Virus record (IMG/VR): IMGVR_UViG_3300036846_000061
Location: 1 to 52,418 of that record
DNA length: 52,418 bases
From: a virus
Lineage: Duplodnaviria; Caudoviricetes
Reading direction: 5' to 3' (one strand)
The notes below the pieces were generated by a model that was not told where the DNA came from, ran no database searches, and saw only the letters and a list, made by a program, of their open reading frames with translations. The translations under genes were made by a program, and so were the position numbers. Position 1 is the stretch's first letter; the number at the start of each line of letters is the position of its first letter. Shown here one piece after another: positions 459-52,418 of the stretch.

Positions 459-1898
459 ATGAACCAGATTAGACGCCAAGATGGTTATGCTAACTTACTA
501 TCTGGACTAGGCGTTCCAGGTCTAGATCGCACATCCACTACCTTCCAAACAAGTAGTAATTGGATGGGTCGTGGTCTGACTCGTTACTGGACACAAAGGT
601 TTAATGCTTATGAACTAACTAATTTGTATATCACTAGTGGACTAGCACAAAAGATAGTAGACAAGCCCGCTGATGACTCGTTTCAAAGAGGTGTTCATAT
701 AGAGAATGATGAAGATGAATTAATGATTGCTGAATATGATAGACTTGCAGTATTGACTAGAATGGCTGATGCTATTAGATGGTCGCGTTTATATGGAGGC
801 GCAGCACTTATACTTATAGCCCAAGATGGAGGTGACTTTAGCGATCCACTCAATCTAGACAATCTAGATATGATCAATGAAATCAAAGTATATGACATAA
901 TGAGTATACAAGGAACTGGCAAATACTATACTGATGATAGCGATCCAGATACATTCGGAAAGATGGAGTATTACAACATTACTCCGCCAGAAGGACAGTC
1001 TTTTGAGATACATGAAACTAGATTAATACCAGTTCCTGGCGAGCCTTTGCCTCCAAATATGGTATATTTTAATCGTATACATTGGGCTGGTAGATCAGTA
1101 TTGGAGGCTTGTGCTAAGGATATTGGACGCTATGAGCGTGGACTAGATTGGTCAGAAAGGTTACTTGAGCGTAAGCAACAAGCAGTATATAACATGTCTG
1201 GTCTTGGCGAGATGATGGCCAATGGCGATGATGCTATGGTTGTTAGACGTATCAATATGGTCGATCAGGTTAGAAGCAATCTTAACTCTGTTGTAGTAGA
1301 CAAAGATGATGTATATAATGTTTTGAGTCCAGGCATCGATGGAACTCAGCCCGTTATTGAAGAGTTTAAGACAGCACTAGCGGCATCTTCTGGCTTCCAA
1401 GTAAACATGTTATTTGGTCAATCAACAAAAGGATTAAACCAGACTAATGCTGGTGATCTTGAGTCCCATTACGTAATGGTAGCTCATATACAAGAGGTAA
1501 TAGCTAGACCAGCATTAGAAAAGCTCACCTCTATACTATGGCTACAGAATGGACTAAAGAATGATATCCCAGATGATTGGGAAATCAAATTCAATTCTCT
1601 ATGGGTGCCTACTGATAAGGAGAATGCCGACAAAGAATTGGTAGAAGCGCAAGCAGAGAATATGGAAGTAACAACATTGATGACTCTTGTTAGTAATCAA
1701 ATTATGACTCCAGAGGAAGTGCGAGAGATTGTTGTAGACGAATACTATGGCGACTATGAATTTAGCACTGATCTGCCTACATTCCCTGAGGAGCTAAACT
1801 ATAGCGCCAATGTAGATGTAACGCAGATGGATGTGCCTATTGATAATGCTGGTGGCAATCCCGCGCCAGGAGTAAATCCACAGGTTCCGGTAAGATAA
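459..1898 (+). CDS. Portal protein (DUF1073/HI1409-like)
   Basis: 479 aa after TerL; DGYANL, RWSRLYGGA and LFGQSTKGLN motifs. Confidence 0.88.
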   Translation: MNQIRRQDGYANLLSGLGVPGLDRTSTTFQTSSNWMGRGLTRYWTQRFNAYELTNLYITSGLAQKIVDKPADDSFQRGVHIENDEDELMIAEYDRLAVLTRMADAIRWSRLYGGAALILIAQDGGDFSDPLNLDNLDMINEIKVYDIMSIQGTGKYYTDDSDPDTFGKMEYYNITPPEGQSFEIHETRLIPVPGEPLPPNMVYFNRIHWAGRSVLEACAKDIGRYERGLDWSERLLERKQQAVYNMSGLGEMMANGDDAMVVRRINMVDQVRSNLNSVVVDKDDVYNVLSPGIDGTQPVIEEFKTALAASSGFQVNMLFGQSTKGLNQTNAGDLESHYVMVAHIQEVIARPALEKLTSILWLQNGLKNDIPDDWEIKFNSLWVPTDKENADKELVEAQAENMEVTTLMTLVSNQIMTPEEVREIVVDEYYGDYEFSTDLPTFPEELNYSANVDVTQMDVPIDNAGGNPAPGVNPQVPVR

Positions 1899-2101
1899 TG
1901 GCAACTTTCGAACAAGAACCACTATTGCAATTCTTTGATATTGGTCACCTCAGAGAAGATTTGCAATTGGTTTCCGCACCATTCGCTGAGTTGGCAAATC
2001 GTATAGTAGATACATTGCCGCGTAATCCAGAACGAACTACTGCTATTCGTAAGTTGCTTGAAGCTAAGGACTGTGCAGTAAGAGCAAAGTTGTATAGATG
2101 A
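1898..2101 (+). CDS. Small helical protein, possibly related to Acb2/Tad1-type nucleotide sponges
   Basis: Coupled at both ends; LLQFF..HL...LPRNPERTTAIRKLLEAKDCAVRA; function inferred. Confidence 0.7.
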   Translation: MATFEQEPLLQFFDIGHLREDLQLVSAPFAELANRIVDTLPRNPERTTAIRKLLEAKDCAVRAKLYR

Positions 2102-2958
2102 AACGACGTAAGAAAATTGTTCCGATGAAGTATCCTCATAGTATTGAATATGAGTATCGGCGCAATTTGCGTTGGCTAAATGCTCAGATGCGAAAGGCAG
2201 TAAAGCATTATCTTCACCCTGTTGTTGAAACTGCTACCGCTGAAGTTACTGATACGTCTCACCCTGCTGGTGGGCATATTAGACAAGATGCTTGGCAAGA
2301 TGACCTCTATAAAGCTATGGATAATATAGCGAAAGATATGGTTGGGCCGACTAACGCAACTATCAAAAGATCATCATCAATACCTATAAAGGTGAATTCA
2401 TACAATAAAGCAGAATGGAAGAAACTGATACGCTCGCAATATGGTGTTAATCCTACTGCTGAAGACCCTGCTGCCTATGCTGATCTAATGGAACACTGGG
2501 CTTTCAATAATGCTGCTCTTATAAAAGACATACCGATTAAGACTATGAAGCAAATAGCGGACATGACTACTGAAGCTCTAATGAGTGGACAAACACAAGA
2601 AGATTTGTCAGATGACATCTACAATATATTTGATGATCGTTTGGACGTTACTGATAGTCGTTGCGATCTTATCGCCAGAGACCAAGTAGCGAAACTGAAT
2701 GGCAAACTTACTAGTGAAAGACAACAAGATATTGGTGTTGATAGTTATGTATGGCGAACTGTTGGAGATGAACGAGTAAGAGAAGCACACGCAGAGGTAG
2801 ATGGACAAACATTCCAATGGGGTAATCCGCCAGGAGATACTGACTTTAATGAACCTGGTGAAGACTATCAATGTCGTTGCTGGGCCGAACCAGTATTGCC
2901 TGAGGCTATGTCAGTAGAAGCTTCATTACTCGATGAAGAAGAAATGGTGGATGCGTAA
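2098..2958 (+). CDS. Head morphogenesis protein (SPP1 gp7/MuF-like)
   Basis: IARDQ..KLNG, YVWRTVGDERVREAH, PGEDYQCRC motifs. Confidence 0.9.
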   Translation: MKRRKKIVPMKYPHSIEYEYRRNLRWLNAQMRKAVKHYLHPVVETATAEVTDTSHPAGGHIRQDAWQDDLYKAMDNIAKDMVGPTNATIKRSSSIPIKVNSYNKAEWKKLIRSQYGVNPTAEDPAAYADLMEHWAFNNAALIKDIPIKTMKQIADMTTEALMSGQTQEDLSDDIYNIFDDRLDVTDSRCDLIARDQVAKLNGKLTSERQQDIGVDSYVWRTVGDERVREAHAEVDGQTFQWGNPPGDTDFNEPGEDYQCRCWAEPVLPEAMSVEASLLDEEEMVDA

Positions 2959-3134
2959 TGACTCTTCAAACTGAAGAAAGCAAAGATGAATTAATTGGTA
3001 AGATGCGCGCAGTGTTAGTGCAGTGTTATGATCAATTTCGTTTCTATGAGCAAGAGCATATTAGGAAAGGTTCTTTTGAGAAATCAGCGACTAATGCTAA
3101 GTTTGCTATAATGTGTTCTGAGGTGTTGAAGTAA
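2958..3134 (+). CDS. Hypothetical protein (58 aa, MTLQTEESKDELIGK...)
   Basis: Hand-translated; fills the gap exactly with TAATG overlaps at both ends. Confidence 0.65.
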   Translation: MTLQTEESKDELIGKMRAVLVQCYDQFRFYEQEHIRKGSFEKSATNAKFAIMCSEVLK

Positions 3135-4225
3135 TGGTAACACGATATGATGTTATTGCAGTAAAGGCTGAAGTATCCAAGGAAGGTTGGATACGTGATA
3201 GGCCAGTCATTACTAGATCAGGCATCTTTGAATATAGAACCGCAGACGGAAAGATCAGAAAAGAATACAGGCCTGATAGTGAAGTATTCTCGGATACAAG
3301 TCTTGCTACGGCTAATGGGATACCTGTTACTGATAGCCATCGTGGTTTGGTTGACAGTAAGAATGTTGATGGCATTATCGGAACAGTTACCAGTAATGGC
3401 ATTAAAGATGAAGCCAATGTTTTGGCAGATGTTATCATCCATAACCCGTCACGTCTAGGCGACAAGCGTGAATTGTCTCTTGGTTATGAATGTGACATCG
3501 ATGAGACGCCAGGAGAATATAACGGTCAACGATATGATTGTGTACAAAAGAATATAATATACAATCACCTCGCGGCTGTAAAGAAAGGACGTGCCGGTAA
3601 TGCTAGACTGAGGCTTGACTCTAACGATGCCATTATTGGCACTTTTCAAATGGAGACACCTATGGAACCTACCACTAAGCTCGTTACAATTAGGCTCGAT
3701 GGCATCGACTATCAAGCCTCGCCTGAGATCAGTAATGCTTTGAATAAAGAGCGGGAAGCATTGGCTGCTCTACAGAAACGATTTGATACTGTAGAGGCTG
3801 AGCGTGATACGCTCAAAAGCACTACTGCAAACTTTGATAAAGAACTTAAGGCTGCGCGCGAGGCTGGTCGCGCTGTCGTCAAAGTTAGGCTTGACCTTGA
3901 AGATGTAGCTCGTCAGCATAAAGTAAAGTTTGATGACGATGATACTGATCAAGTAATCAAGACTAATGTTTTGGGCAAGCTTCGTCCAGAACTAAAGTTG
4001 GATGGTAAGTCAGAGGACTATATTGATTCTGCTTTCGATCTGACTATGGAAGCCAATAAAGATAAGCAAAAGAAAGTAGTCAATCAACTTTCTAGGTTTG
4101 ACAAAGCTGCACCTTCTGGCGATAATAATGTAACAGAAATGGGAGGTGCTGGCGCGGCTAGAGCGAGATACCTTGCTCGTTTGCGTGGAGAAAAGACTGA
4201 AGATGGCGGTGGTAAAGCCGCATAA
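3134..4225 (+). CDS. Head maturation protease/scaffold (DUF2213-like)
   Basis: RSGIFEY, PVTDSH, ELSLGY, NHLAAVKKGRAG motifs followed by a coiled-coil C-terminus. Confidence 0.88.
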   Translation: MVTRYDVIAVKAEVSKEGWIRDRPVITRSGIFEYRTADGKIRKEYRPDSEVFSDTSLATANGIPVTDSHRGLVDSKNVDGIIGTVTSNGIKDEANVLADVIIHNPSRLGDKRELSLGYECDIDETPGEYNGQRYDCVQKNIIYNHLAAVKKGRAGNARLRLDSNDAIIGTFQMETPMEPTTKLVTIRLDGIDYQASPEISNALNKEREALAALQKRFDTVEAERDTLKSTTANFDKELKAAREAGRAVVKVRLDLEDVARQHKVKFDDDDTDQVIKTNVLGKLRPELKLDGKSEDYIDSAFDLTMEANKDKQKKVVNQLSRFDKAAPSGDNNVTEMGGAGAARARYLARLRGEKTEDGGGKAA

Positions 4226-4257
4226 CTAGATTATAGTTTTGGTCAAGGAGTAAGCAA

Positions 4258-4800
4258 ATGAGTGATCGCGCTCAAGAACGTCGTGACGATCGGGCTGGCC
4301 CTGAGCAGCAGGCTTATCAGCCATATGACTCTGCTACTTTCTTTTCAGTTGGTTTTCCTGGAATGAAAAGTACAGCTATGGATGATAATGTCGAGAGTTG
4401 GCCTTGTGGAACTGAGTCTGATTTCGGAACCGTAGTGACTAAAACTGTTGGTCCTACTGGATCGCTTCTAGTAGAGAGTGGTGGCACTGGAGATGTTGCT
4501 GGCATCGCTCTACATGATCACATCATCGCTACATACGGTCATTACTCTCAAGGAATGGCCGTATCAGTAATGACTCGCGGTCGTGTATGGTGTGCAGTTG
4601 ATGGTGCTGGCACTGGAATTACTTATGGTGCTCCTGCCAGTTTCAATCCGGCAAACGGCAAACTAAGTGCTTCTGGAACTGCTGTTCCTAATTCATCGTT
4701 CAGAGGAATGGTGAATGGCTTCTACGATATGCTCACAGGAACAACAATTAATATTGTTGAGGTTGAGCTACACTATCCATTTGCTGTAGCAGGTCCGTAA
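4258..4800 (+). CDS. Capsid decoration/cement protein
   Basis: Between scaffold and capsid genes; VSVMTRGRVW motif; AAGGAG RBS. Confidence 0.75.
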   Translation: MSDRAQERRDDRAGPEQQAYQPYDSATFFSVGFPGMKSTAMDDNVESWPCGTESDFGTVVTKTVGPTGSLLVESGGTGDVAGIALHDHIIATYGHYSQGMAVSVMTRGRVWCAVDGAGTGITYGAPASFNPANGKLSASGTAVPNSSFRGMVNGFYDMLTGTTINIVEVELHYPFAVAGP

Positions 4801-4832
4801 TCCCATCAACCCTCAACTAAAGGAATAGACTA

Positions 4833-5825
4833 ATGCTTCCAAAAGATCATGTACACTATGACGAGGCTGATCTGCCTGGCGTCATGGACTTTGTTGAACG
4901 AAACTTCCGTGAAGATCAAATTGCTACGCAAGTCTCAGGACTATGGCTTGCGCAACAACTTGATTATATTAAGTCGCAGACATATGATCGTTTGCGTCCA
5001 GGAATGAACGCTGATCGTCTTGTTCCTGACGATACATCTACTCCAGAATGGGCCGAGACTATTACCATTCGTATGTTTGACATGGTTGGTATGGCTAAAG
5101 TAATTGCCAACTATGCAGATGATCTCCCGCGCGCAGACATTGCTGGAGCGGCTCTGAGTGTTCAAGTAAAGACACTTGGCGATAGCTACGGTTACAATGT
5201 AAACGAATTGCGCGCCAGTAGAGCCACTGGAGTTGGTCTTGATACTCGCAAAGCCGATGCTGCTAGGCGAGCAATGGATCTTAAGATTGCCAGTATTAAA
5301 TTGAAGGGAGACCCTGACTTTAACTTGTTTGGATTGTTTACTCATCCAAACGTTCCAGAGTATGTCTTCCCGCATCCTGGCGATTGGACTGCTCTAACTG
5401 GCGATCAAATCTATGAGAATTTGGTCGGCCTTGCCTCTGCTTATACTCAGCAGAACCTAGGTATCCATATCGCTAACTTTTTGGAACTGGCAACTAAAGC
5501 TTATATAGCTGCCACCTCTAAATTTGTTACTGGACCTGGTGGACTTCCCATTGCTGCTCTAAGCCTGTTCGTTGCTAACTTCCCAGGCATTACTGTAGAG
5601 CATATTTGGGAATGCACTAATGCTGGGCAAGGCGCAAATGCAGGTAAGGATGTTGCGCTATTGTATGAGCGTGATATTGGAAACCTCGCGCACGAATATG
5701 TGATGCCGTTCTCGCAGCTACCTCCTGATGCGCGCAATCTAGAGATTGTTACGGATTGCCTGGCCAGGAGCGCTGGTGTTCAAATCTATTATCCTCTGTC
5801 ATTACTGAAAGGCTACACAACCTAA
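4833..5825 (+). CDS. Major capsid protein (DUF2184-like, HK97 fold)
   Basis: 330 aa; GMAKVIANYADDLPRAD, SYGYNVNEL, GLFTHPN motifs. Confidence 0.92.
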   Translation: MLPKDHVHYDEADLPGVMDFVERNFREDQIATQVSGLWLAQQLDYIKSQTYDRLRPGMNADRLVPDDTSTPEWAETITIRMFDMVGMAKVIANYADDLPRADIAGAALSVQVKTLGDSYGYNVNELRASRATGVGLDTRKADAARRAMDLKIASIKLKGDPDFNLFGLFTHPNVPEYVFPHPGDWTALTGDQIYENLVGLASAYTQQNLGIHIANFLELATKAYIAATSKFVTGPGGLPIAALSLFVANFPGITVEHIWECTNAGQGANAGKDVALLYERDIGNLAHEYVMPFSQLPPDARNLEIVTDCLARSAGVQIYYPLSLLKGYTT

Positions 5826-5826
5826 T

Positions 5827-6015
5827 ATGGCGGTTGTAGTAAACAACAGTGAGCGAGCAATAACTATAATTGATGTATTGGTCGCTCCTGGCATGCCAAC
5901 AGAACTACAGGATGAGCGACTAAATCATCCTGGGGTTCAGTCTCTGATGCATCAGATGACTGAGCGTAACGTGCCTGTTCTAGTAATAGTTGCAACTGAA
6001 AGGGACAATGTGTAA
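5827..6015 (+). CDS. Hypothetical virion-module protein
   Basis: Tightly coupled ORF after the capsid gene. Confidence 0.6.
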   Translation: MAVVVNNSERAITIIDVLVAPGMPTELQDERLNHPGVQSLMHQMTERNVPVLVIVATERDNV

Positions 6016-6620
6016 TGGCTACTTCTACTCCTGCTTTGATTGTTACTGGTGGTGGTGGACCTGATAATAGTTTGCCTGGTATTGGTAGTGGCGGTGGAAA
6101 TATAGATAATAGTTTGCCGCCACCTCCCGGCATTTGGCCGCCTCCAGTAGAGATTTGGCCGCCAGTTGTTCTTCCACCGGATTATCCAATGCCTCCTGGC
6201 AGCATTTGGCCTCCGGTTATAAATGTTGGTCCGATTCAACCTCCTCACGTTCCGCCTGGTGGACAAGTTCCGCCTCCAAGTGTAGGTGGTGGTCCTGCTC
6301 CTCCGCAACCTGGTCGGCCAACTCCGCCTGATCGTCCAGAGCAAGGTTTGCCACCGCAAATTGGTGGTGGACCAGTGTTGCCAAGTCCGAAATATCTAGT
6401 TGCTATCGTTGCAACAAGTTCTGATGGTGGACTTAAGGTAATTGGATATACTGTAGTGGATCCAAGCCTTAGTGTAGGTTTGCCATTGCCTGGTGGTCCT
6501 CCTGGCCATATTAGTGGTCAGCCACTTCCTCCTGGGCATGTTAGTGGCCAGCCTATTCCGCAGCCTAATCCTCCGCATGTAGGCGGTGGGCCCGCGCCTA
6601 CTCCTGAGCCGAAACGATAA
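6015..6620 (+). CDS. Proline/glycine-rich repetitive protein
   Basis: DNSLP x2, IWPP x3, VGGGP x2 plus IGGGP, PPGH(I/V)SGQP x2. Confidence 0.75.
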   Translation: MATSTPALIVTGGGGPDNSLPGIGSGGGNIDNSLPPPPGIWPPPVEIWPPVVLPPDYPMPPGSIWPPVINVGPIQPPHVPPGGQVPPPSVGGGPAPPQPGRPTPPDRPEQGLPPQIGGGPVLPSPKYLVAIVATSSDGGLKVIGYTVVDPSLSVGLPLPGGPPGHISGQPLPPGHVSGQPIPQPNPPHVGGGPAPTPEPKR

Positions 6621-6632
6621 TACAATACTATA

Positions 6633-6658
6633 CCGTGGGTCTAGAGATAGGCCCACGG
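6633..6658 (+). promoter_or_regulatory. Stem-loop with GAGA (GNRA) tetraloop, no U-tract
   Basis: CCGTGGGTCTA-GAGA-TAGGCCCACGG upstream of the PEP-CTERM gene. Confidence 0.6.
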
Positions 6659-6689
6659 GACTACCCTATAGTTAACTTTGGAGGGGAAT

Positions 6690-7334
6690 ATGACTAAACT
6701 AGTTGCTATCGTTGTCGGCGCACTGGCCTTTCCTAGCTTTGCCTATGCTGTTCCTATCATTCAGTTTGCTCAAACCAGTGGCAGTAACACTATTACTGCT
6801 ACGGCAAATGCTGGTGATACGGCCACTACTATCTCTGGAACTGATGTAGCAGTAAATGTTGCTCAGAACCTCGGTGGCACTCTTGGCGCTGCCTTTCTTG
6901 ACTTGAATGCTACTAGCGTTGATAGTGCAGTAGCAGTAGGCACTGGTGCGGTCCAGCACTATAATGGAACGTTCTCAGTCTTTACTGGCGCTGGAATGAC
7001 AGGACTAAACCTTCTGTCTGGAGTGTTTACTGATGCCGCTCTTGGTGTTGGTGGCGCTCTCACTCTTGCTATCGGCGCACCTCCTGATACGCTTAACTTG
7101 ACGTCAGACGAAATTCCGGCAGCAGAACTAGTTAATCCAGATGCGGCTTCATTTGGTTTGACTAATGTTTCGCCGGCAATTAATATCGCTGGATCGACTA
7201 TCAATAGTTTTACTGCAACTGTTGCTGGTAATGTATCGTCGTCAGTAGCCGCTGTTCCTGAGCCTGCCAGTATCGCTCTGCTTGGTATGGGTATGCTTGG
7301 TCTTGGTATGCTTCGGTATCGGCGCCAGGAGTAA
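6690..7334 (+). CDS. PEP-CTERM sorting-domain protein with signal peptide
   Basis: N-terminal MTKLVAIVVGALAFPSFAYA; C-terminal VPEPASIALLGMGMLGLGMLRYRRQE; GGAGGGG RBS before ATG 6690. Confidence 0.9.
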   Translation: MTKLVAIVVGALAFPSFAYAVPIIQFAQTSGSNTITATANAGDTATTISGTDVAVNVAQNLGGTLGAAFLDLNATSVDSAVAVGTGAVQHYNGTFSVFTGAGMTGLNLLSGVFTDAALGVGGALTLAIGAPPDTLNLTSDEIPAAELVNPDAASFGLTNVSPAINIAGSTINSFTATVAGNVSSSVAAVPEPASIALLGMGMLGLGMLRYRRQE

Positions 7335-7342
7335 TCCCACTA

Positions 7343-7855
7343 GTGTCTGAAGTAAAGACGCTGCCTGTAGAACCTCCACACTGGACAAGTGTGGAGGCTT
7401 TACTCCAACTGTTCTATCCCCAATTCTTTGACGAAACTAATGAGCAATATGTCGATCCAGCTATACTTCTACAGTTGGCGACATTGGCTGAAGAAACACG
7501 ACCGTGGTGTCTTCCTCCTGGCCAACAAGACTTAGCACAAGCAGCATTTACTGCATACTTAGTCTCATTACGTGGCGAGACTAGTTCTGGCGTAACTAAT
7601 GTTCCGACTATAGGGCCTATACAATCTGAGAAGGAAGGTGACATACAAGTAACGTATGCTGCTTCTACTACCAATACACAATCAGGAATGTCACAAAGAC
7701 CGCCATCCGACGCCTGGGATACTTGGAATAGACTATATATGCGTTGTGCTAAAGGTTCCATTATGACTCGCTTTGGCGATCCTTGTAGGTCTGCGCGAGC
7801 ACTAACTGATTATATAAATCCACTTGCATTTAATGTTTGGTATCCGATATGGTAG
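7343..7855 (+). CDS. Head-tail connector (DUF4054-like)
   Basis: YPQF, IQSEKEGDIQVTY motifs and position. Confidence 0.7.
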   Translation: MSEVKTLPVEPPHWTSVEALLQLFYPQFFDETNEQYVDPAILLQLATLAEETRPWCLPPGQQDLAQAAFTAYLVSLRGETSSGVTNVPTIGPIQSEKEGDIQVTYAASTTNTQSGMSQRPPSDAWDTWNRLYMRCAKGSIMTRFGDPCRSARALTDYINPLAFNVWYPIW

Positions 7856-8295
7856 CATTTAAGGATAAAGATATGGGATGGAAAGAAATAGAATTGAATA
7901 TTAAACAACTCAAAGGACGCAAGGTCAAAATTGGTATAATGGGAAACGAAAGTGTCGAGGGCACCTCAGTTGTGGATTACGCTATCTATAATGAGTTTGG
8001 CACTCGCAATATTCCTAGTCGCCCTTTCATGGCTACCACTGCTGATAGATATAGAGATGCAACGGTTAAGGTTGCTGAAGCGATGGTTGGAAATGTTATA
8101 GACAGGAAGTATAATGTAGACACTATGTTGGCTAGACTTGGCGCTTGGTATCAAGCTAAGGTTCAACAAACAATACGAGATGCTAAAGAATGGGCTGTGC
8201 CTAATAATCCTGAAACTATAAAAGCAAAGGGATCAAGCTCACCTCTTATTGATACTGGAAGGATGGTAGGATCAGTAAGGTATGAAGTAGAATGA
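7849..8295 (+). CDS. Neck/tail completion protein (HK97 gp10-like)
   Basis: YNEFGTRNIPSRPF, KGSSSPLIDTG motifs. Confidence 0.8.
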   Translation: MVAFKDKDMGWKEIELNIKQLKGRKVKIGIMGNESVEGTSVVDYAIYNEFGTRNIPSRPFMATTADRYRDATVKVAEAMVGNVIDRKYNVDTMLARLGAWYQAKVQQTIRDAKEWAVPNNPETIKAKGSSSPLIDTGRMVGSVRYEVE

Positions 8296-8705
8296 CAACA
8301 TCATTCCGTAAGTCATTCAAAGTATTGAGACGTAGCCTGGGCTATTGGGAGGAAGGTAGATACTTTCCATCAGATAATATTGGACTTCCTGAGCAAGTAA
8401 TGGCTACTGTTCAAATGCCATCTACTGGCGATATGATGAAAATAGAAGTTATGCCTTGGGGTAAGCGCGCGGCAAGATACATAAAGATATATACTGATAC
8501 TAGATTGAATTGTGTAAATCAACGAATTGCCAACACGCGCCAGGAGTATCCAGGAGACATCTTCTACTATGATGGTTCCGAATATTTATTGTTTGGTGAA
8601 GCTGACTTTACTATGTTAAGTCAAACTAGAAAGACCCAAGTATCTCATTGGCGTTATTATGCTTGCGAATTGATCGAGGGATCGAAATTGGAGATGATTA
8701 ATTGA
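8292..8705 (+). CDS. Head-tail adaptor/closure protein
   Basis: Position; GYWEEGRY, IKIYT, HWRYYA motifs. Confidence 0.65.
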   Translation: MTTSFRKSFKVLRRSLGYWEEGRYFPSDNIGLPEQVMATVQMPSTGDMMKIEVMPWGKRAARYIKIYTDTRLNCVNQRIANTRQEYPGDIFYYDGSEYLLFGEADFTMLSQTRKTQVSHWRYYACELIEGSKLEMIN

Positions 8706-42951: not shown

Positions 42952-42983
42952 AAAAATACTCCTGGCGCCGAAGCGCCAGGAGT
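42952..42983 (-). terminator. Intrinsic terminator
   Basis: Minus strand ACTCCTGGCGC-TTCG-GCGCCAGGAGT-ATTTTT (UUCG tetraloop plus U-run). Confidence 0.85.
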
Positions 42984-42991
42984 TGATTAGC

Positions 42992-43507: not shown

Positions 43508-43515
43508 ATTCTCTT

Positions 43516-44313: not shown

Positions 44314-44683
44314 TCCTTATTCACATATTACAAAGAACACCAAAATCATCAACTATATAGTTATTTCTCTTGCAGCAGACAATCTTGGGTAGGCGCGTCT
44401 AGGCCGAATAAGCTAGTTCCCTATTCGTTCCCTAGTATAGCCGATTTCGGCGGCCACGTCTAGTCCAGCCGTATATTATATTGTTACGTAACGATCACAT
44501 TTCAATCAAGTATATACTTCAGTCAATACTGATACTCGTATATACCGGAATTGTTATTGTTTCATATCTTCTTGACATGACCCCTAGACGCGGGCACCGA
44601 TCTAGGCTAGGCTCTAGGGGTGGATCGGAACTGCCATAAGCCGCTCTACATTGATCTTTGACAATAGAATGAAGGAACATAGA

Positions 44684-45619
44684 ATGTCGCGAGCAAAGTC
44701 AAGACGTGATAGGAGTAACACGAAAGTGAGTGAACATAATGTGCAAGGTGTGCCTTTCAATGCGCAGGTTCCTCCTGGCGCCCAAGATGCCTCTGCTACA
44801 GAGCATTTTACAACGCCAGAGACCACCAATGAAGACTTCGCAGTTGATATCGGTGAGGAACACCCCAAGGAAGGTGCAGAGTATCCAGCGTCCCAAGTAA
44901 CGGATGAGGCTACTCATAAGGCACAAGTTGATGCTGAGGCTGAAGCTCGTGTAAAGCGTGCTAAGGCTGTAAGCAGCCCGCGTCGTTTGACTGAGCGGGA
45001 GAAGCAAGCTGTTGGAGTATTGCTTAGTTTGGATATTCTGAAAACCTCTGACAGTATAACGGATGTTGAAATTCCTCTCGACCATGTGCCTGAGAATATT
45101 CGGGCATCATTCTTTGAAGTTGGGAGCGAACGTAACATCTTCCAGCGTGGGATTGCATCACCAGTATATGGTGGTGAACCCAAAACTATCGTGGGCCTTA
45201 AGTTGACCGAAATTGGTATGCATCTCTATGGACTCAAGACTAGTCCAAAAGAGAAGAAAGCCAAGGAACCTAAGGTTGCAGGTGAGGCTAAGGCTCCTGG
45301 CCGGCGCTCCACTAAGTATCACGATGGTCTTAAGCTGAAGATGATCTCTGAAAATCCCAGGCCTGTTGGCACTATGGGATACTTTTCTTGGCAACTATAC
45401 AAAGATGGTATGACCTATAGTGAGTATATGGGTATCAAGGATTTTCCTGAGAGCTACTCTGCGAGAACTGGCGAGAAGTTCCGTGGCCCTGGACTTAATC
45501 ATTGGTCTTGGGACCTAGAACACGGCTTCACTGGTCTATATCACGCGGACCAGCCTGAGAAGCTGGAAGATGGTAGTGACAATCCTAAGTATTGGGCGGT
45601 CAATAACAATCCTCGCTAA
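44684..45619 (+). CDS. Hypothetical protein, probably DNA-binding (Lys-rich linker, NP...G......LY..GMT..EY...WD..HG domain)
   Basis: Long ORF with RBS and downstream hairpin; start uncertain. Confidence 0.7.
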   Translation: MSRAKSRRDRSNTKVSEHNVQGVPFNAQVPPGAQDASATEHFTTPETTNEDFAVDIGEEHPKEGAEYPASQVTDEATHKAQVDAEAEARVKRAKAVSSPRRLTEREKQAVGVLLSLDILKTSDSITDVEIPLDHVPENIRASFFEVGSERNIFQRGIASPVYGGEPKTIVGLKLTEIGMHLYGLKTSPKEKKAKEPKVAGEAKAPGRRSTKYHDGLKLKMISENPRPVGTMGYFSWQLYKDGMTYSEYMGIKDFPESYSARTGEKFRGPGLNHWSWDLEHGFTGLYHADQPEKLEDGSDNPKYWAVNNNPR

Positions 45620-45626
45620 TACAATA

Positions 45627-45662
45627 ACTCCTGGCGTTCTAGTTGTGGGCGCCAGGAGTATT
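45627..45662 (+). terminator. Hairpin/terminator made of opposed CGCCAGGAG motifs
   Basis: ACTCCTGGCG...CGCCAGGAGTATT right after the stop codon. Confidence 0.6.
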
Positions 45663-45725
45663 ACGATGCAAATTCTATATTATAGATGAGTATAATCCTC
45701 TATAATATAGGAACTGGAGAGAAAC

Positions 45726-46322
45726 ATGCGGCCAGATCGTTTGTTTGGTGGCCTACCTCCCAAACGACCATTGATAAGTCTCGATGCTATTGTTGAAGAT
45801 TGGCAAATGAGATTCATTAATGGTGATGCCAAGAAGTATCGTGATACTGTAGTTGATTACTGCATAAAAGCTTCCTCTTTTGAAGAGGCAGTATGGCGAG
45901 CTTGCAAGTGCCGTAATGAACAAGGCAAAAAGCACAATCATCAAAGTAAGGTTCAAGATCACGTATTGAATACTTGGGCTAATGTAATCATTGCAGATAC
46001 AGACGAAACAAAGCTTACTAATTTTGATGAATTGTTCGATCATCTAGAGACATTATTGATATGGGGTATCGGCCCAGTTACTCATTATGATGTGGCTACG
46101 AGAATTGGAGCATACCTCAAGTTGGAACCAGAACAACTCTATTTACACGCTGGCGTTCTTGACGGCTGGAAGCTATTACATAAGCACAAGATTAAATGGC
46201 CAATTAGAGTTCCAAGAGACTTCTGGCCCGCAGAACTGCGTTCATTACCTGCGGATCAAGTTGAAGATTTACTGTGCGCCTACAGGACGTTCCTCAATCC
46301 AACAGTAGTAAAGGAAATATAG
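45726..46322 (+). CDS. HhH-glycosylase-fold protein, distantly like amino acid:DNA transferase/aGPT-Pplase families
   Basis: GIGPVTHYDVATRIG...YLHAG...EDLLCAY motifs; relationship inferred. Confidence 0.55.
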   Translation: MRPDRLFGGLPPKRPLISLDAIVEDWQMRFINGDAKKYRDTVVDYCIKASSFEEAVWRACKCRNEQGKKHNHQSKVQDHVLNTWANVIIADTDETKLTNFDELFDHLETLLIWGIGPVTHYDVATRIGAYLKLEPEQLYLHAGVLDGWKLLHKHKIKWPIRVPRDFWPAELRSLPADQVEDLLCAYRTFLNPTVVKEI

Positions 46323-46333
46323 TGGAAATAACA

Positions 46334-46519
46334 ATGTTACTAGTCAAGGAGACTAGAAACTTTCTAGTTTATGCTCAAACTAATAATGATCAAAATGCAT
46401 TAGACGATGTTGATGCTATTGTTATGAAATGGTATTTGAGGAAGAGCGACTTCAATGACTTCCCAGAATTGATTACTGTCACAGTACAACCCAAGGAGAG
46501 CGAGAATGGAACTGACTGA
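46334..46519 (+). CDS. Hypothetical protein
   Basis: Coupled small ORF. Confidence 0.5.
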   Translation: MLLVKETRNFLVYAQTNNDQNALDDVDAIVMKWYLRKSDFNDFPELITVTVQPKESENGTD

Positions 46520-46691
46520 GAAGATGATCAGAAACCTATTCGATGCAATTGCCGAGATGGTTAATGCCGATGGGTCTTGGAAGGATAAACAATACGTGAT
46601 ACTAAATCAAGCTGATGAACAAGATAAGATTTGGTTAGCAGAATTTGCTAATTGGTTCGTTGATCTTGATGAGGAGAATGATGATGACTAA
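46506..46691 (+). CDS. Small acidic protein
   Basis: AAGGAG RBS. Confidence 0.6.
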   Translation: MELTEKMIRNLFDAIAEMVNADGSWKDKQYVILNQADEQDKIWLAEFANWFVDLDEENDDD

Positions 46692-46899
46692 GTATGTTGT
46701 AGATATTAATGGAACGTTTACTGCTGTTGTAAATGTTGAAATTGATGCTGATGTTGTAAAGGATGAAACTGAAGAGGACATCGAACAAATGATATATGGT
46801 CTAGCCGAGAAACAATTAAATGAGATGTTAGATAAGAATGATTTAAGTCTTGTTGATAATATAGAATTGGAGTGTATAGATAATGTAGAAATAGACTAA
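46678..46899 (+). CDS. Small, very acidic protein
   Basis: GAGGAG RBS; D/E-rich. Confidence 0.6.
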   Translation: MMMTKYVVDINGTFTAVVNVEIDADVVKDETEEDIEQMIYGLAEKQLNEMLDKNDLSLVDNIELECIDNVEID

Positions 46900-47177
46900 A
46901 CATCAAAGATACGTTCTGACCACTGGCGCCAGGAGCGAACGATCCTTTGTCCTTTGGGCGTAAGGATTATTCCTCCTGGCGTCAAGTCATTAAACTCAAT
47001 GGCTATCTCACGATAGAAATTGAAACGTTTCTTTGTTTCTTCCCCAAATATACGTTCTATATTGTTGTTTGATATTGTTTCATTGTTTTCATGCATCCAT
47101 TCAATCGTGCATAACATCCATAAGTATATGGCTTTGTCAACGGCAGTTATGGTATGCTGTCTAGCTCTTAACATCAA
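46896..47177 (-). CDS. Hypothetical protein, possible winged helix
   Basis: ILTPKG motif; stop overlaps the convergent gene; start uncertain. Confidence 0.45.
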   Translation of the reverse strand: MMLRARQHTITAVDKAIYLWMLCTIEWMHENNETISNNNIERIFGEETKKRFNFYREIAIEFNDLTPGGIILTPKGQRIVRSWRQWSERIFDV

Positions 47178-47191
47178 CTATAAGAATATAG

Positions 47192-47220
47192 TTTACGCGC
47201 GGCTCGATCCGCGCTACTAT
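47192..47220 (+). promoter_or_regulatory. Putative promoter TTTACG-N17-TACTAT for primase/VapE
   Basis: Followed by a leader hairpin CGCTACCTGGTAG...CTACCAGGCAGCG and a GAGGA RBS. Confidence 0.5.
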
Positions 47221-47331
47221 TACTATTCGTCGCTGATTGAAGAAAAGACGCTACCTGGTAGCGCAATACTGGGCTAAAGTATTGAGTTACTACCAGGCAG
47301 CGGACATCAATCCTTTGAGGGAGGAAACGCG

Positions 47332-48348
47332 ATGTCAGCTAGTATATATAGTAGTTCCGACGAAAACACTAGAGATGATTTTATAGCGCCTAATAATATT
47401 ACCGTTTGCCGATCATATAGTACCAAACTTATACTTTGTAAAACAGTATATCCTAGCTCTGAAGTTGCCTACGACAATGTCAAATACTACAATTTTTTCA
47501 ATAGACCAGTTCAACATCTCCAGGATTTATTTGAACTAATCAAGTATCTCCTGGCGCGCCCACAATGCTGTGTCATTCGTGGTGTATGCGTAGATGATAG
47601 CAAGCCAAAACAACGACGACTACTGTATGATGATAGAGAAAGTGGTGAGCACGCTACCGTTATTGAACAAGATCAAAATTGGTTCGCACTAGATATAGAT
47701 GGATATGGTGTGTCGTCTGGTGATTTGAAACTTGATGCGAACAAAGTTCTCCTGGCGCTCGGTCTCTCTAATGTAGAGGCTTTTGCCATTCCTAGCGCTG
47801 GTTACTTGAGAAAGCCTGGTATTCATATCAGGCTGTTTTTATGGAACTCAGTGCGTGTGAGTTGTCTAGCTCTCAAGAAACATTTTAGTAGTGCAAAAGG
47901 CATAGTAGATACAGCGTTATTTGGGCCGGTCCAGCCTATCTATACCTCGCGCCCGAGATTTATAGGGTGTAGCGATCCTTGTGAGAAATGGTGGACATGG
48001 ATCTCTGGTGAGGCTCAACATACTAATGTGCCGCCGAATTATAGTGAACGTGGAAGGTCAGAGAAACGATATACAGCAAAACAAGCAGAATCATTTCTAG
48101 CAGCTACTGTTAGGAAGATGGAGAACATTGAGGTTAAGACTAGACATAATTGGTTACTAAGAGAAGCAATATTATATGGGCAATTATGTAGTCAAGGTTT
48201 ATTAGATGATGAAGATACTAAACAACAATTATATAGTGCAGCTGGATATTATTGGCATGGTGATAGAAGAAAGGATATGGAAACTATAGTTGACGGAATG
48301 AAGCGCGGATACCAACAAATGGAGGGGAACAATGACAGCGAGTTCTGA
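47332..48348 (+). CDS. Primase/prim-pol-like protein with PriCT-like C-terminus
   Basis: ALDIDG, SAG...HIRLFLW, QPIYTSRP, RHNWL motifs; adjacent to VapE. Confidence 0.7.
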   Translation: MSASIYSSSDENTRDDFIAPNNITVCRSYSTKLILCKTVYPSSEVAYDNVKYYNFFNRPVQHLQDLFELIKYLLARPQCCVIRGVCVDDSKPKQRRLLYDDRESGEHATVIEQDQNWFALDIDGYGVSSGDLKLDANKVLLALGLSNVEAFAIPSAGYLRKPGIHIRLFLWNSVRVSCLALKKHFSSAKGIVDTALFGPVQPIYTSRPRFIGCSDPCEKWWTWISGEAQHTNVPPNYSERGRSEKRYTAKQAESFLAATVRKMENIEVKTRHNWLLREAILYGQLCSQGLLDDEDTKQQLYSAAGYYWHGDRRKDMETIVDGMKRGYQQMEGNNDSEF

Positions 48349-49894
48349 TTTAGATGATCTTATTATACAATTGAATGAACGCGACTCAGTTGATGCTAAA
48401 GAAAAGTTTTTGATTGAAGAACATCCAGAATTCATACTATTATTAGTAGAGCTATACAAAGAAGATTTACAAGAACATCAAAACTATTACGACAGAATAC
48501 TAGACTCATTTCTAAAGGTTAGAGGCAAGACTGCTTTTAAGAAAACACTTGATAATCTTCTTGATAATGTATTGAAGAAAGAACATAAATCAAAACTTGA
48601 AGAATTTAGCAATGCTGATTTCTCTAAGCTAGCAGTAAGTAAATCTGGACCGTTACCGACGCCAGACAATTATTATCAAATACTTCTGGCGGCCAAACGT
48701 ATTAAAATGGTTCATGACGAAATGACTGCGTATCCTTACTTTACTCAAATGATGTGGGATACAATTGATCGACCATTAATGCTACCTAATGATGGCACTC
48801 AATACTATAAATATAATGATTTCATGGAAACTGATTTGAAATGTGTATTGAATAGATATGTATATCCAGCAGAAATTAGTTTTACTGCTCTAGATGATGC
48901 TGTGTGGAAAACAGCTAGGCATAATAATGTTGATTTCTATAAGAAATGGATGTTAAGTTATGAAGATCAATATGATGATACTGTGGATCATTTCAGTATT
49001 AATAATTGTTTTGCTATCAAGTATTTAGGTGCGCCTCAAGAGCAATGGAGTTGCACTTGGGCTCGTGTATTAATGATGTCTCTAGTTCAAAGATGTTTAG
49101 AGCCTGGATGTCATCAGAGATATTATTTTGTAATCGAGGGAGAACAAAATATTGGAAAGACTAGGTTCTGTAGAATGCTTGTTCCTGATCAGTGGTATAT
49201 AAGTCACGCACTATCATCGAGAGAAGACATTGCAGACTTTTATAGACATATATATGATAAGGCTGTAGTTGAATTCGCAGAACTAGGAGGCACAGATAAA
49301 GCCTCCATTAATCTATTCAAAAGAGTTGTTACTGAAACTCATTCAGTATATAGACGAATGAGAGTTAATGATGTATCCTATTTTGCTAAGCGTAACATTA
49401 TTATATTGACGACAAATGAGAATACATATTTGAGAGATGCTTCTGGCGATACTCGCGCGATGATACTAAAGTCTGAATTAGCTCAAAACCAATTTATGAA
49501 TTTGGAAGGATTTGAAAAGGAATTTCCTCAGATATTAGCTCAAGCAATACGTATGTATAGAAATGGAATAAGTTGTTTTCTTAATCGAGATGAATTTGAA
49601 GCGCAAAAGGAACAAACTGATAAACGTGATGTTACATTCTCTTCTGATGAATACGAATTGGTTTGTGATTTCTTTAATGATGCGAATCAATTAGAGATAT
49701 GTAAAGAGAACGGTGTATATTTAGATTTGATTTATACTCACGCTCAAGTAAGTTGGGATATGATGAAACCAGAATTGATGAGGAAAGCGAGAGCATTTGG
49801 TGCTGCTTTAGTTAAATATGGTTTTAGTAGGCACGACAATAAAGCTAGATTGATTGATGGTAAAATACGCAAAGTATGGTATTGGAAACAATAG
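48332..49894 (+). CDS. VapE-family P-loop ATPase/helicase
   Basis: EPGC...VIEGEQNIGKT, VEFAEL, TTNE..YLRD.SGD.R motifs. Confidence 0.88.
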   Translation: MTASSDLDDLIIQLNERDSVDAKEKFLIEEHPEFILLLVELYKEDLQEHQNYYDRILDSFLKVRGKTAFKKTLDNLLDNVLKKEHKSKLEEFSNADFSKLAVSKSGPLPTPDNYYQILLAAKRIKMVHDEMTAYPYFTQMMWDTIDRPLMLPNDGTQYYKYNDFMETDLKCVLNRYVYPAEISFTALDDAVWKTARHNNVDFYKKWMLSYEDQYDDTVDHFSINNCFAIKYLGAPQEQWSCTWARVLMMSLVQRCLEPGCHQRYYFVIEGEQNIGKTRFCRMLVPDQWYISHALSSREDIADFYRHIYDKAVVEFAELGGTDKASINLFKRVVTETHSVYRRMRVNDVSYFAKRNIIILTTNENTYLRDASGDTRAMILKSELAQNQFMNLEGFEKEFPQILAQAIRMYRNGISCFLNRDEFEAQKEQTDKRDVTFSSDEYELVCDFFNDANQLEICKENGVYLDLIYTHAQVSWDMMKPELMRKARAFGAALVKYGFSRHDNKARLIDGKIRKVWYWKQ

Positions 49895-50070: not shown

Positions 50071-50125
50071 TACGGTTAAGATAACGAATATGTCTAAATA
50101 GAAGTGCCGCCAGGAGAACCCACTT

Positions 50126-50729: not shown

Positions 50730-50731
50730 CG

Positions 50732-51076
50732 GTGATACCGTTACTTTTGCATAACCAAATGCCTGATGGGTTCGATCCTCATGTAGAGCTAGAGCGTATC
50801 TACACTCTCGCAGAAGCTATGCGAGCTTGTAAACAACGCATCCCTGTAGTAATGGCACAGATGGATGCGGCTTTAGCAGACCCAGAGACTGCAATAGCAG
50901 ACAAGTTTCGTATATGGGATATGATCTGGAACCGTGCTTATGGGAAGCCGCGCCAGACAGTATACATTAATGACGAGACTAGTGCGAACCAAAGTTCTAG
51001 TCGTGTCAAAGTATATCTTCCAGACAATGGCCGCGTAACAACTCCTGTCAAAGTTATTGATAGCGAGGCGGCATAA
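50732..51076 (+). CDS. terS: Terminase small subunit (putative)
   Basis: NRAYGKPRQ motif; TAATG overlap with TerL. Confidence 0.7.
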   Translation: MIPLLLHNQMPDGFDPHVELERIYTLAEAMRACKQRIPVVMAQMDAALADPETAIADKFRIWDMIWNRAYGKPRQTVYINDETSANQSSSRVKVYLPDNGRVTTPVKVIDSEAA

Positions 51077-52418
51077 TGTATGATGGATTTGATACTGACT
51101 CTGATCTAAGACCGCAACCAGGTCCACAAGAACAATTCTTGTCTACTGCTGCCGACATAGCTATATATGGAGGTGCCGCTGGAGGTGGTAAGACTTATGC
51201 TCTACTGCTTGAGCCTTGTCGTCATATTGATAATGCTGACTTCGGCGCTGTCATATTTCGTCGCGAGGCTGTTCAAATCACTTCTGAAGGAGGTTTGTTC
51301 GACACCAGTTTCCAAATATACGAGCGTATAGACGGCACTCCAAGACAAAGCCCATATAAGATGTGGACGTTTACTAGTGGCGCCACTATAACGTTCAGCC
51401 ATCTTCACAATAACCACGATGTAAATGACTGGCAAGGATCACAAATCCCGCTCATTGGATACGACGAACTCACCCATTTTACTGAACAGCAATTTTGGTA
51501 TATGTTGTCCCGCAATAGGTCGATGTGTGGTGTTCGACCGTATATACGTGCGACATGTAATCCTGATGCTGACTCTTGGGTTGCTGATTTGGTGTCTTGG
51601 TATATTGATCAAGATACTGGTTATCCTTTGCCCGATAGGTCTGGCATCATACGTTATTTTATTAGAACAGACGACAAAATGATTTGGGCAAATACGCGCC
51701 AGGAGTTACTATGTAAGTTCCCTGGATCACTGCCGAAATCATTTACATTCATCCCTGCTACTCTTGAAGACAATGTTATTCTAAACAATCAAGACCCAGA
51801 CTACCGCGCTAATCTAGAGATGATGACTAGAGTAGAACGCGAGCGTCTGTTACACGGTAATTGGAAGATTAAACCTACAGCTGGTTCTTACTTCCCACAG
51901 ACTTGTATAAATATAATCCCAGCCGAACCTACCGATGTAAAGGTTTGGATTAGACGTTGGGATTTGGCAGCTACAGAGCCCAGTGAAGTTAGTCCATCGC
52001 CTAGTGCTACCGCATCAGTGTTAATGGGTCGCAGAGAGAATGGCAGATTTGTTATTGCTGATGGGATTAATATACGGCGTAACGCTTCTGTGGTGCGTGA
52101 TATATTGTCTGCTACTGCTTCACAGGATCGAAGCAAGTATAGGCGAGTTACAACAGTCGTGCCACAAGATCCAGGACAGGCTGGAAAAGATCAGTCAGCA
52201 TCTATCATCGCTTTCCTCGCAGGTTATAAGGTTAAATCTATACGAGAAACAGGACCCAAGATTACTAGAGCAGAACCTTTGTCTGCCCAATGGCAAGCCG
52301 GAAATGTTGACATAGTAGATGGTCCGTGGGTCCGGGATTACTTGAAGGAAATGGCTGCGTTTCCTGAAGGTGATCATGATGATTATGTCGATGCTAGTAG
52401 TGGTGCCTTTCTTGAGTG
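51076..52418 (+). CDS. terL: Terminase large subunit (463 aa across the circular join)
   Basis: Hand-translated: PQPGPQEQFL, YGGAAGGGKT, YDELTHF, RATCNP, WDLA, QDPGQAGK; absent from the ORF track because the stop lies past the window end. Confidence 0.95.
   Translation, partial: MYDGFDTDSDLRPQPGPQEQFLSTAADIAIYGGAAGGGKTYALLLEPCRHIDNADFGAVIFRREAVQITSEGGLFDTSFQIYERIDGTPRQSPYKMWTFTSGATITFSHLHNNHDVNDWQGSQIPLIGYDELTHFTEQQFWYMLSRNRSMCGVRPYIRATCNPDADSWVADLVSWYIDQDTGYPLPDRSGIIRYFIRTDDKMIWANTRQELLCKFPGSLPKSFTFIPATLEDNVILNNQDPDYRANLEMMTRVERERLLHGNWKIKPTAGSYFPQTCINIIPAEPTDVKVWIRRWDLAATEPSEVSPSPSATASVLMGRRENGRFVIADGINIRRNASVVRDILSATASQDRSKYRRVTTVVPQDPGQAGKDQSASIIAFLAGYKVKSIRETGPKITRAEPLSAQWQAGNVDIVDGPWVRDYLKEMAAFPEGDHDDYVDASSGAFLE
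52292..52418. repeat. Terminal repeat copy (identical to 1-127)
   Basis: Exact sequence identity. Confidence 0.95.

Follow-up and report, generated by a model that had tools for sequence, protein, structure and literature searches.

The genome of an apparently virulent, uncultured soil myovirus with its own replisome, held as the complete IMG/VR virus record IMGVR_UViG_3300036846_000061 (52,418 bp, CheckV completeness 100%; hereafter the window, meaning that whole stretch), carries 45 exact copies of the 9-nucleotide (nt) word CGCCAGGAG, 26 on the + strand and 19 on the - strand. The word recurs about once per kb. We conclude that it is a DNA signal that overrides protein coding, that the proteins have changed to fit it, and that the case is a very clean one. 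Tentatively, we read it as a Chi-like signal, 5'-CTCCTGGCG-3' (core CTCCTGGC), which a host end-processing helicase-nuclease of the RecBCD or AddAB type may recognize. The window most likely shows an unusually dense, two-strand form of the known phenomenon of Chi-accumulating phages, with a word new to the literature searched.

The word in genes and in the phage family

A preliminary description of this DNA had counted at least 45 exact copies by eye. The count is exactly 45, at every coordinate given there and nowhere else. Its eyeballed GC content of about 40% compares with a measured 41.5%, and its statement that chance would yield far less than one copy agrees with our shuffles: 100 dinucleotide-preserving randomizations gave a mean of 0.18 copies and a maximum of 2. 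Markov models of orders 0 to 4, counting both strands, likewise predicted 0.15 (order 0), 0.59 (order 3) and 2.5 (order 4) copies. Nor is the word an artefact of assembly, since it is also the top 9-mer in five more complete or near-complete records from other samples. Separate Logan contigs of run X1 cover 30/30 bins of 40001-50000, a result that lacks independence, as the window itself may come from X1.

The unit under selection is the core GCCAGGAG, present in 60 copies, of which 45 follow a C, 11 a G, 3 a T and 1 an A. Third from its end, the word has G in the 45 exact copies and A (10), T (5) or C (3) in variants; at 7/9 positions, one-mismatch variants are nearly absent (0-3 copies summed per position). 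The consensus SGCCAGRAG matches 69 sites in the window, of which 24 are one-off variants spanning 985..49448. Ten of the variant copies read CGCCAGAAG (starts 985, 4113, 14086, 16355, 25896, 29307, 32188, 33738, 48683 and 49440), and others read GGCCAGGAG (starts 5762, 6499, 7515, 9806, 10716, 25786, 29030, 34452, 35753, 35758 and 45294) or GGCCAGAAG (starts 22719, 40372 and 46220). Beyond the core, the flanks are nearly uninformative, except that one base, two positions upstream, differs by lineage and that A/T is mildly preferred downstream; 27 of the 45 exact copies are preceded by G. No description of the word was found in the literature searched; of two papers containing any of four strings looked for, the one listed is unrelated. 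A link to CCWGG, the Dcm/EcoRII site that the word contains, had been drawn in the preliminary description. It finds no support: the enriched variant CGCCAGAAG has no CCWGG, and other CCWGG sites are not depleted, there being 142 in the window, 65 of them within CCAGGAG and 77 outside it against about 57 hand-estimated from base composition.

Could the encoded proteins account for the word? Called genes hold 33 of the 45 copies (21 sense, 12 antisense), and 12 are intergenic. We shuffled synonymous codons within genes, which preserves every protein and the codon usage of each gene; 300 such runs left a mean of 1.73 coding copies (standard deviation 1.27, maximum 8) against the 33 observed. Hence, coding does not explain the word, and the shuffles that the preliminary description had named as the test able to overturn it failed to reproduce the counts. 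The different frames and both orientations that it had reported were found as well, encoding PPG, APG or TPG, RQE, LLA and ARS.

The proteins themselves carry the imprint of the word. Synonymous change could place it at 70 positions in the window proteins, and 33 are occupied. In frame 1, the word in either orientation encodes X-Pro-Gly-X, and 92 of the 106 [STPA]-Pro-Gly-[VADEG] tetrapeptides in six genomes (87%) are spelled with the exact 9-mer (18/20, 19/21, 10/14, 17/20, 16/19 and 12/12 per genome). The tripeptide RQE occurs 5-6 times per genome in these six, versus 1-2 times for its reverse, EQR.

The word is a family trait, as the suggested search of related phages brought out: it is the top 8- or 9-mer in every relative with a polymerase at least 53% identical. 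An IMG/VR scan for inverted pairs of the word, which detects inverted-pair carriers only, returned 96 stretches. All of those at 38-47% GC with at least five copies encode relatives of window proteins, and four partial records that at first looked different carry the same structural module. GCCAGGAG is the top 8-mer in G000-G005 and G693-G696, and the word is the top 8- or 9-mer in 10/10 family records taken whole, at a density of 1 per 0.7-1.2 kb in the family. Whole records G001-G005 hold 52, 46, 40, 36 and 36 exact copies, and the reversed word is absent from them. At the level of loci, 21/21 with a polymerase 53-90% identical carry GCCAGGAG at 0.7-1.7 per kb; five loci with a polymerase 38-42% identical carry none, and their whole records have 0-3 copies. 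Some lineages prefer GGCCAGGAG, the base outside the core varying between C and G by lineage.

Individual positions are not kept. At about 80% protein identity, the word is retained at 18/28 aligned sites in G003 and 17/29 in G004; at about 55% identity, it is retained at 4/15 in G001, 2/17 in G002 and 4/17 in G005, where copy numbers are equally high. At places not shared among relatives, the amino acids differ. Positions thus turn over while copy number stays constant, which argues that the number and spread of sites are maintained, and not particular sites.

The sites are also spread too evenly for chance. Grouped into 61 loci, the 69 SGCCAGRAG sites have a coefficient of variation (CV) of 0.55; their widest gap is 1,813 bp, and none of 5,000 random placements was as even. 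Variant sites fill the largest gaps between exact copies. Five relatives share the tendency (CV 0.69-0.83, p 0.002-0.12), G003 and G004 not being independent of the window. Codon shuffles, the occurrence in both orientations, all frames and intergenic DNA, turnover, saturated places and over-even spacing together uphold the proposal of a DNA-level signal under genome-wide selection.

Orientation is unrelated to transcription and related to position. In the six genomes, sense and antisense copies number 27/21, 31/25, 23/14, 26/24, 24/24 and 22/22; this near balance excludes a stoperator-like or mRNA-level role as the main cause of the word. We then considered the genomes rotated to start at the terminase gene. 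In each of the six, '+' sites are shifted leftward relative to '-' sites (Mann-Whitney p 0.008-0.09), and the first 5 kb after the terminase start hold 23 '+' and 3 '-' sites when the genomes are pooled. Within + strand genes, there are 88 '+' and 55 '-' sites in the half after the terminase start and 11 '+' and 36 '-' sites in the last 9 kb before it (77% antisense). Fisher tests give p 8e-6 when all six genomes are combined and 1.7e-4 when the four least related are, with the same direction in every genome. An excess alternation of orientations was rejected as a feature, as it vanishes after close pairs are merged. When each genome is split freely into two arcs, a split that reaches significance in none of them singly, the '+' arc always starts 0.9-2.1 kb upstream of the terminase gene. 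Its first site in the window is the copy at 50108..50116, so the switch falls at about that point, just upstream of a 114-amino acid (aa) open reading frame (ORF) and the terminase large subunit gene (50732..52418, + strand). This flip suggests that packaging starts there.

Readings of the word

In the Chi-like reading, CTCCTGGCG would be read by the host's RecBCD- or AddAB-type enzyme on the strand that ends 3' at a DNA end. The phage would package circularly permuted, terminally redundant DNA and, carrying no detectable recombinase, would use the host enzyme, instead of being destroyed by it, to circularize or repair its linear DNA and to form concatemers. With ends falling almost anywhere, every end would require a correctly oriented word no more than about 1-2 kb away, and this in both directions. 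The word would then be kept dense, even and two-stranded by selection, housed in tolerant codons (Pro-Gly, Arg-Gln-Glu, Leu-Leu-Ala) and in intergenic hairpins. Around the packaging start, a bias would turn each orientation towards its nearest ends: if CTCCTGGC were the strand read, beginning at its 3' side, the ends faced would lie to the right for '-' sites upstream of the terminase genes and to the left for '+' sites downstream of them, the product to be expected of a packaging series that starts near the terminase genes. We infer the reading enzyme, the strand read, the packaging mode and the host.

Several results agree with this mechanism. Even spacing, together with turnover at constant copy number, argues for selection of a site in every stretch and not of particular sites. 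The 'direct terminal repeat' of the record is a 127-bp exact overlap (unique length 52,291 bp); hence the assembly is circular, as expected for permuted DNA. Pfam families for RecT, ERF, RecA, Rad52/Sak and YqaJ were found in 0/11 whole records (6 word-rich, 5 word-less). The Sak4-like family AAA_24 was found in 0/6 word-rich genomes versus 3/5 word-less relatives above cut-off (E 1e-27 to 1e-33; G012:C1:11412-11990, G013:C1:10023-10589 and G014:C1:1785-2363). CTGGCG is common to the complement of the word and the Pseudomonas Chi GCTGGCGC, and the shared stretch extends to CTGGCGC in the 27/45 copies that are preceded by G.

The known Chi-accumulating phages offer the closest comparison. Zheng et al. 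2025 (PMC12315714) describe phages without recombination modules that accumulate the host Chi until it is their commonest octamer, and give Chi counts of 23 for LLS (1 per 1.86 kb), 50 for P1 (1 per 1.9 kb) and 32 copies of GCTGGCGC for MD8. Subramaniam and Smith (10.1101/2021.07.08.451572) describe P1, P7, D6 and NGUA22 as headful-packaging, terminally redundant phages with Chi on both strands, 'nearly randomly oriented'; P1 and three relatives are there said to need RecA and RecBCD to circularize and to have denser Chi near their ends. In our own count of the P1 record, Chi occurs 31 times forward and 19 times reverse, including two close inverted pairs; the window has 26 and 19 and inverted pairs too. 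As in P1, LLS and MD8, an asymmetric G/C-rich word is the most frequent octamer, lies in genes and between them, turns over in evolution and accompanies a lack of recognized recombinases; as in P1, it occupies both strands and close inverted pairs, and its orientation may relate to DNA ends. The circular assembly is a further likeness. The window differs in having another word, about twice the density, an even spread and a weaker orientation bias, in a virulent-type soil myovirus with its own replisome, and its reading enzyme is a putative one. The preliminary description had compared the word to HIP1, Chi and stoperators. Chi fits best of these, while HIP1, a palindrome, and stoperators, tied to the direction of transcription, each fail in a defining feature.

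Several observations weigh against a Chi-like signal. The word positions that match the 3' end of the Pseudomonas Chi are the least conserved, so that CTGGC alone is firmly shared; Chi-rich phages in the publications compared reach at most about half this density; and the sites are spread evenly instead of clustering near ends. The orientation bias is no more than 62-77%, and no genome by itself yields a significant free two-arc split (P 0.4-0.8). Six Pfam families underlie the statement that recombinases are absent, many ORFs have no family, a weak RecU-like resolvase is present, and conserved proteins without an assigned role, such as one of 335 aa, could be recombination proteins. Every word-rich IMG/VR contig found by the inverted-pair scan belongs to one phage family, though a host-read word might be expected in unrelated phages too. 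Finally, no enrichment beyond composition was seen among 1,079 sampled genomes plus about 25 more. The samples comprised 368 genomes at class level around G016 (mostly of 9-14 Mb, and probably of another class than the one intended), 301 of an order, 9 of the family of G448 and 401 of a class, about 0.5% of the species in the collection; G277, G415, G594, G683, G735, G837, G991, G1003 and G943 enter the negative tallies only. In the order, family and second class samples, the 9-mer reached at most 0.07 per kb and the 8-mer at most 0.22 per kb. The true host probably lies outside the sampled genomes.

Two genomes were considered as enriched hosts and rejected. G448 and G713 (62-63% GC) have an excess only against the reversed word, which is a poor control, and are not enriched against a Markov model. 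Among the matches listed (at least 120) in an inverted-pair scan of genome contigs, only chance ones in high-GC genomes appeared. Apart from the word, the bacterial contig G448:C1 (63.5% GC) carries a CRISPR (clustered regularly interspaced short palindromic repeats) array of about 120 repeats, and the Pseudomonas-type Chi GCTGGCGC shows a strand skew in it, with 234 forward and 402 reverse copies in 400 kb.

If the host does not read the word, a protein of the phage might. A phage-encoded reader of double-stranded DNA, serving a self-marking or architectural system private to the family (phage/host DNA discrimination, replication or condensation, packaging), is the main rival and a serious one, though less likely than a Chi-like signal. 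It would suit the confinement of the word to one phage clade, its absence from the nearest relatives and the lack of a host-like genome among those sampled, and also the intergenic, palindromic, dimer-like sites, among them the perfect 16-bp palindrome CTCCTGGCGCCAGGAG that two overlapping copies form at 42710..42725. This palindrome recurs in G696, about 350 bp upstream of the homologue of the window's 311-aa gene. Co-evolution with a reader would also allow the base just outside the core to differ by lineage (C or G). ORFs of 161, 335, 311, 155 and 114 aa track the word, being present in 6/6 word-rich genomes and missing from five word-less relatives; clade-shared genes are, however, expected from common descent alone. 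The 311-aa protein (44684..45619, + strand) is restricted to the family (19 matches, all in it) and has a weak winged-helix-like middle domain. Every top fold match of its predicted structure is a winged-helix DNA binder, but these matches are weak (best E 0.17, template-modelling [TM] score 0.14-0.2), and the model is moderate (predicted local distance difference test [pLDDT] 71, predicted TM score [pTM] 0.36). The 335-aa protein (36971-37978), whose homologues carry a precomputed PF26125 assignment, adjoins Pam3 gp33- and gp34-like genes; its model is confident (pLDDT 82, pTM 0.76), and Foldseek matched it to nothing in the PDB at E <= 0.001 (best 0.042). PDB profile searches with proteins A1 and A2 gave 0 matches. 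The orientation flip would not follow from a simple binder of double-stranded DNA, except from one with a role in packaging or ejection. In a more specific form, the most novel one and only a little less likely, the family would write its word into every 1-2 kb of its genome at the expense of its proteins, and a family-encoded reader, with the 311-aa protein as first candidate, would distinguish phage from host DNA or steer a DNA translocase relative to the packaging start, as a phage-borne counterpart of Chi or KOPS (FtsK-orienting polar sequences) in which the host has no part.

Fewer of the results agree with repair drive, an uptake sequence or an RNA-level role. Near-matches might be converted into the word, with no benefit to the phage, by sequence-specific repair or by a mismatch system linked to methylation, of the kind proposed for HIP1 or known from Vsr/Dcm repair of CCWGG. 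The near saturation of compatible places (33/70 in the window, 92/106 of the Pro-Gly tetrapeptides), the scarcity of one-mismatch variants and the CCWGG within the word speak for such a drive, which is nevertheless improbable. No methyltransferase, Vsr protein, HNH nickase or nicking domain, annealase or Gam-like protein was found in the 47 different window ORFs with Pfam, PHROGs and NCBIfam (Gam-like inhibitors were not searched as families), and CGCCAGAAG lacks CCWGG. Even spacing with gap-filling variants and position-dependent orientation are not predicted by a drive, no strand-composition sawtooth in GC or AT skew surrounds the sites, and a host-borne drive should mark the host and its other phages, yet the inverted-pair scan showed no such marking. 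HIP1 (highly iterated palindrome 1) and the alternate highly iterated palindromes of cyanobacteria are hyper-abundant 8-mers in genes, in all frames, with cognate methyltransferases and a debated function. Our word resembles them in its abundance through genes in all frames and differs in being asymmetric and in the lack of a methyltransferase among the 47 ORFs. Stoperators of cluster A mycobacteriophages are dozens of asymmetric 13-bp sites in a genome of about 50 kb, oriented with transcription and bound by the immunity repressor of a temperate phage. Dozens of asymmetric sites through a phage genome of about 50 kb, many inside genes, are a likeness, and reading by a phage protein would be a stoperator feature; here, however, orientation does not follow transcription, and the window yielded no repressor or integrase family. 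Uptake signal sequences (USS) and DNA uptake sequences (DUS) are 9- to 12-mers that occur about once per kb of whole chromosomes, on both strands, evenly spaced, in poorly conserved residues and as inverted-pair terminators, driven by competence. The word might be such a sequence of a competent host, carried over by amelioration or recombination with host DNA, and the anatomy of the USS and DUS of Pasteurellaceae and Neisseriaceae is matched closely in the frequency of about one per kb, the occupation of both strands, the even intervals, the frame preference, the enriched tripeptides, the tendency towards poorly conserved residues and the inverted-pair terminators. Doubled tripeptide frequencies and frame preferences are given for uptake sequences in PMC2817400. 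We still think this very unlikely. The carrier here is a phage family, and the phage, which looks virulent, replicates with a polymerase of its own, which leaves uptake-driven accumulation without a route; no sampled genome has a comparable density, no unrelated phage or prophage with the word appeared in the inverted-pair scan, and the flip of orientation at the packaging genes is not predicted. An origin at the RNA level, with copies acting as Shine-Dalgarno sequences (the word contains AGGAG) or as terminator and hairpin arms and with genic copies as by-products, is about as remote. Seven of the 45 copies do lie 7-12 nt before a start codon, about 10 are intergenic hairpin arms, one pair makes a good intrinsic terminator and another the 16-bp palindrome. 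But 29/33 coding copies are far from starts, 12/33 are antisense, and sense and antisense copies are about equal in the six genomes. Moreover, ribosome binding needs AGGAG only, yet the whole of GCCAGGAG is conserved, which argues for re-use and not for the cause of the word. The Shine-Dalgarno, hairpin and terminator copies thus look like re-use of an abundant word, and an RNA-level role as its primary cause is largely refuted.

Sites and genes in the window

Most sense copies on the + strand encode Pro-Gly. They lie at 1864..1872 in the portal gene (A-P-G-V), 2828..2836 in a Mu F-like head protein gene (P-P-G-D), 3507..3515 (T-P-G-E; G005 has the word in opposite orientation at the same place), 14230..14238 (S-P-G-A; kept in G001, G004 and G005), 15364..15372 (P-P-G-E; kept in all five relatives compared), 17271..17279 (P-P-G-A), 18933..18941 (A-P-G-V) and 20411..20419 (T-P-G-D), where 5/5 relatives are without the word and have other residues instead. 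Three more double as Shine-Dalgarno sequences: 21793..21801 (P-P-G-V), 7 nt before the start at 21809; 23272..23280 (A-P-G-G), 12 nt before that at 23293; and 25091..25099 (P-P-G-G), 7 nt before that at 25107. The - strand copies that are antisense to Pro-Gly codons are those at 14164..14172 in a + gene (T-P-G-G), 15066..15074 (T-P-G-G), 18873..18881 (T-P-G-A), 24296..24304 (T-P-G-A) and 44772..44780 in the 311-aa gene (P-P-G-A).

Sense copies encoding R-Q-E occur on the + strand at 8538..8546, at 51697..51705 in the terminase large subunit gene (kept in 5/5 relatives compared) and at 7323..7331, where R-Q-E-stop ends the PEP-CTERM gene and the word is a Shine-Dalgarno sequence 11 nt before the next start. 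On the - strand they occur at 26944..26952 in the helicase gene, at 31292..31300 and at 32659..32667, the last being the R-Q-E-stop of the ThyX-like gene and a Shine-Dalgarno sequence 8 nt before the next start. Antisense copies over L-L-A lie on the + strand at 26695..26703 (in the helicase gene, itself on the - strand), 28708..28716 and 30385..30393 (both in the DNA polymerase gene) and 35471..35479, and on the - strand in the primase-like gene at 47548..47556 and 47749..47757, the latter kept in G001, G003, G004 and G005. Frame 2 is used in sense by two - strand copies, at 30281..30289 in the DNA polymerase gene (G-A-R-S) and at 36908..36916.

Among the intergenic copies, those on the + strand at 12396..12404 and 50108..50116 are Shine-Dalgarno sequences, each 9 nt before a start (12414 and 50126). 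An inverted pair at 41442 (+) and 41462 (-) spans 41442..41470 with an 11-nt spacer and flanking complementary bases. The pair at 42959 (-) and 42974 (+), within 42958..42983 on the - strand, is terminator-like, with an 11-bp stem, a TTCG loop and a T-run, and lies directly after the gene at 42992-43507. Another pair, 45628 (-) and 45650 (+), occupies 45628..45658 between genes, after the 311-aa gene, and the pair 46927 (+) and 46973 (-), at 46927..46981, has a 37-nt spacer. Stem-loop cassettes are repeated between small early genes over 37976-41364, and the word is one arm in three of them: at 38056..38064 (+) and 38838..38846 (-), both intergenic, and at 40385..40393 (-), in a cassette or small ORF. 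Logan contigs from runs X1 and X2 bridge skips of 620-940 bp between repeated cassettes in 40343-41991, which suggests either that strains vary in how many early-gene cassettes they carry or that the assembly jumps at repeats.

The window contains another iterated word, the palindrome GTATATAC, mostly in the form CGTATATACG, with 18 sites within 38001-51547 (for example 38001/38014, 40830/40854, 41404/41416 and 50595/50608). They are mostly intergenic, in close pairs 12-24 bp apart, before early genes and before the presumed small-terminase ORF. The palindrome is present in G002-G004 and absent from G001 and G005; its sites resemble operators or promoter elements.

On the + strand lie the genes for the terminase large subunit and the portal, together with Mu-F-like and E217/Pam3-type myovirus structural genes. 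A leftward block encodes a family A DNA polymerase, a helicase, an RNase T-like exonuclease, a ThyX-like protein and a pyrophosphatase, and a short rightward block ending at the terminase holds primase-like and helicase genes and the weak RecU-like resolvase. The 114-aa ORF, which has no family match, is presumed from its position to be the small terminase. A cluster of the ThyX-like protein, the pyrophosphatase and a 305-aa protein (31881-34490) occurs in G000, G003, G004 and some word-less relatives and is absent from G001, G002 and G005; it possibly has a role in nucleotide modification. As a word-linked feature, the ThyX/MazG cluster was rejected, G001, G002 and G005 having the word without it. 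No tRNA genes were found in the window.

A megablast search with the window returned no close cultured relative, and the best DNA polymerase identity among cultured phages is 38%; with Rhizobium phage RHph_TM3_3_3, the terminase is the sole gene in common. The runs listed as containing window sequence are soil metagenomes only, with no RNA run among them, and run X2 has a small share of it, with related-strain differences. Inside the head gene cluster, the gene at 6690-7334 encodes a PEP-CTERM protein (TIGR02595, 21 bits against a cut-off of 16; best subfamily match floc_PepA), which points to a Gram-negative host with an exosortase. A protein atlas search with this protein gave no host clue; its cluster of 171 members is 91% viral.

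Meaning for the phage and its host

The saturation of Pro-Gly places and the lineage-wise re-invention of positions make the strength of selection on the word measurable. Should a phage protein read it, the family would have a new kind of phage self-recognition system. To our knowledge, Chi words are known for a mere handful of bacteria. If the Chi-like reading is true, this phage family would reveal, by sequence alone, the recognition word of the helicase-nuclease of an uncultured soil bacterium, and the word would be usable as a marker for host prediction. The rule by which phages without a recombinase borrow the host Chi would then extend from temperate coliphages and Pseudomonas phages to virulent-type environmental phages, with a denser, genome-wide, two-strand layout.

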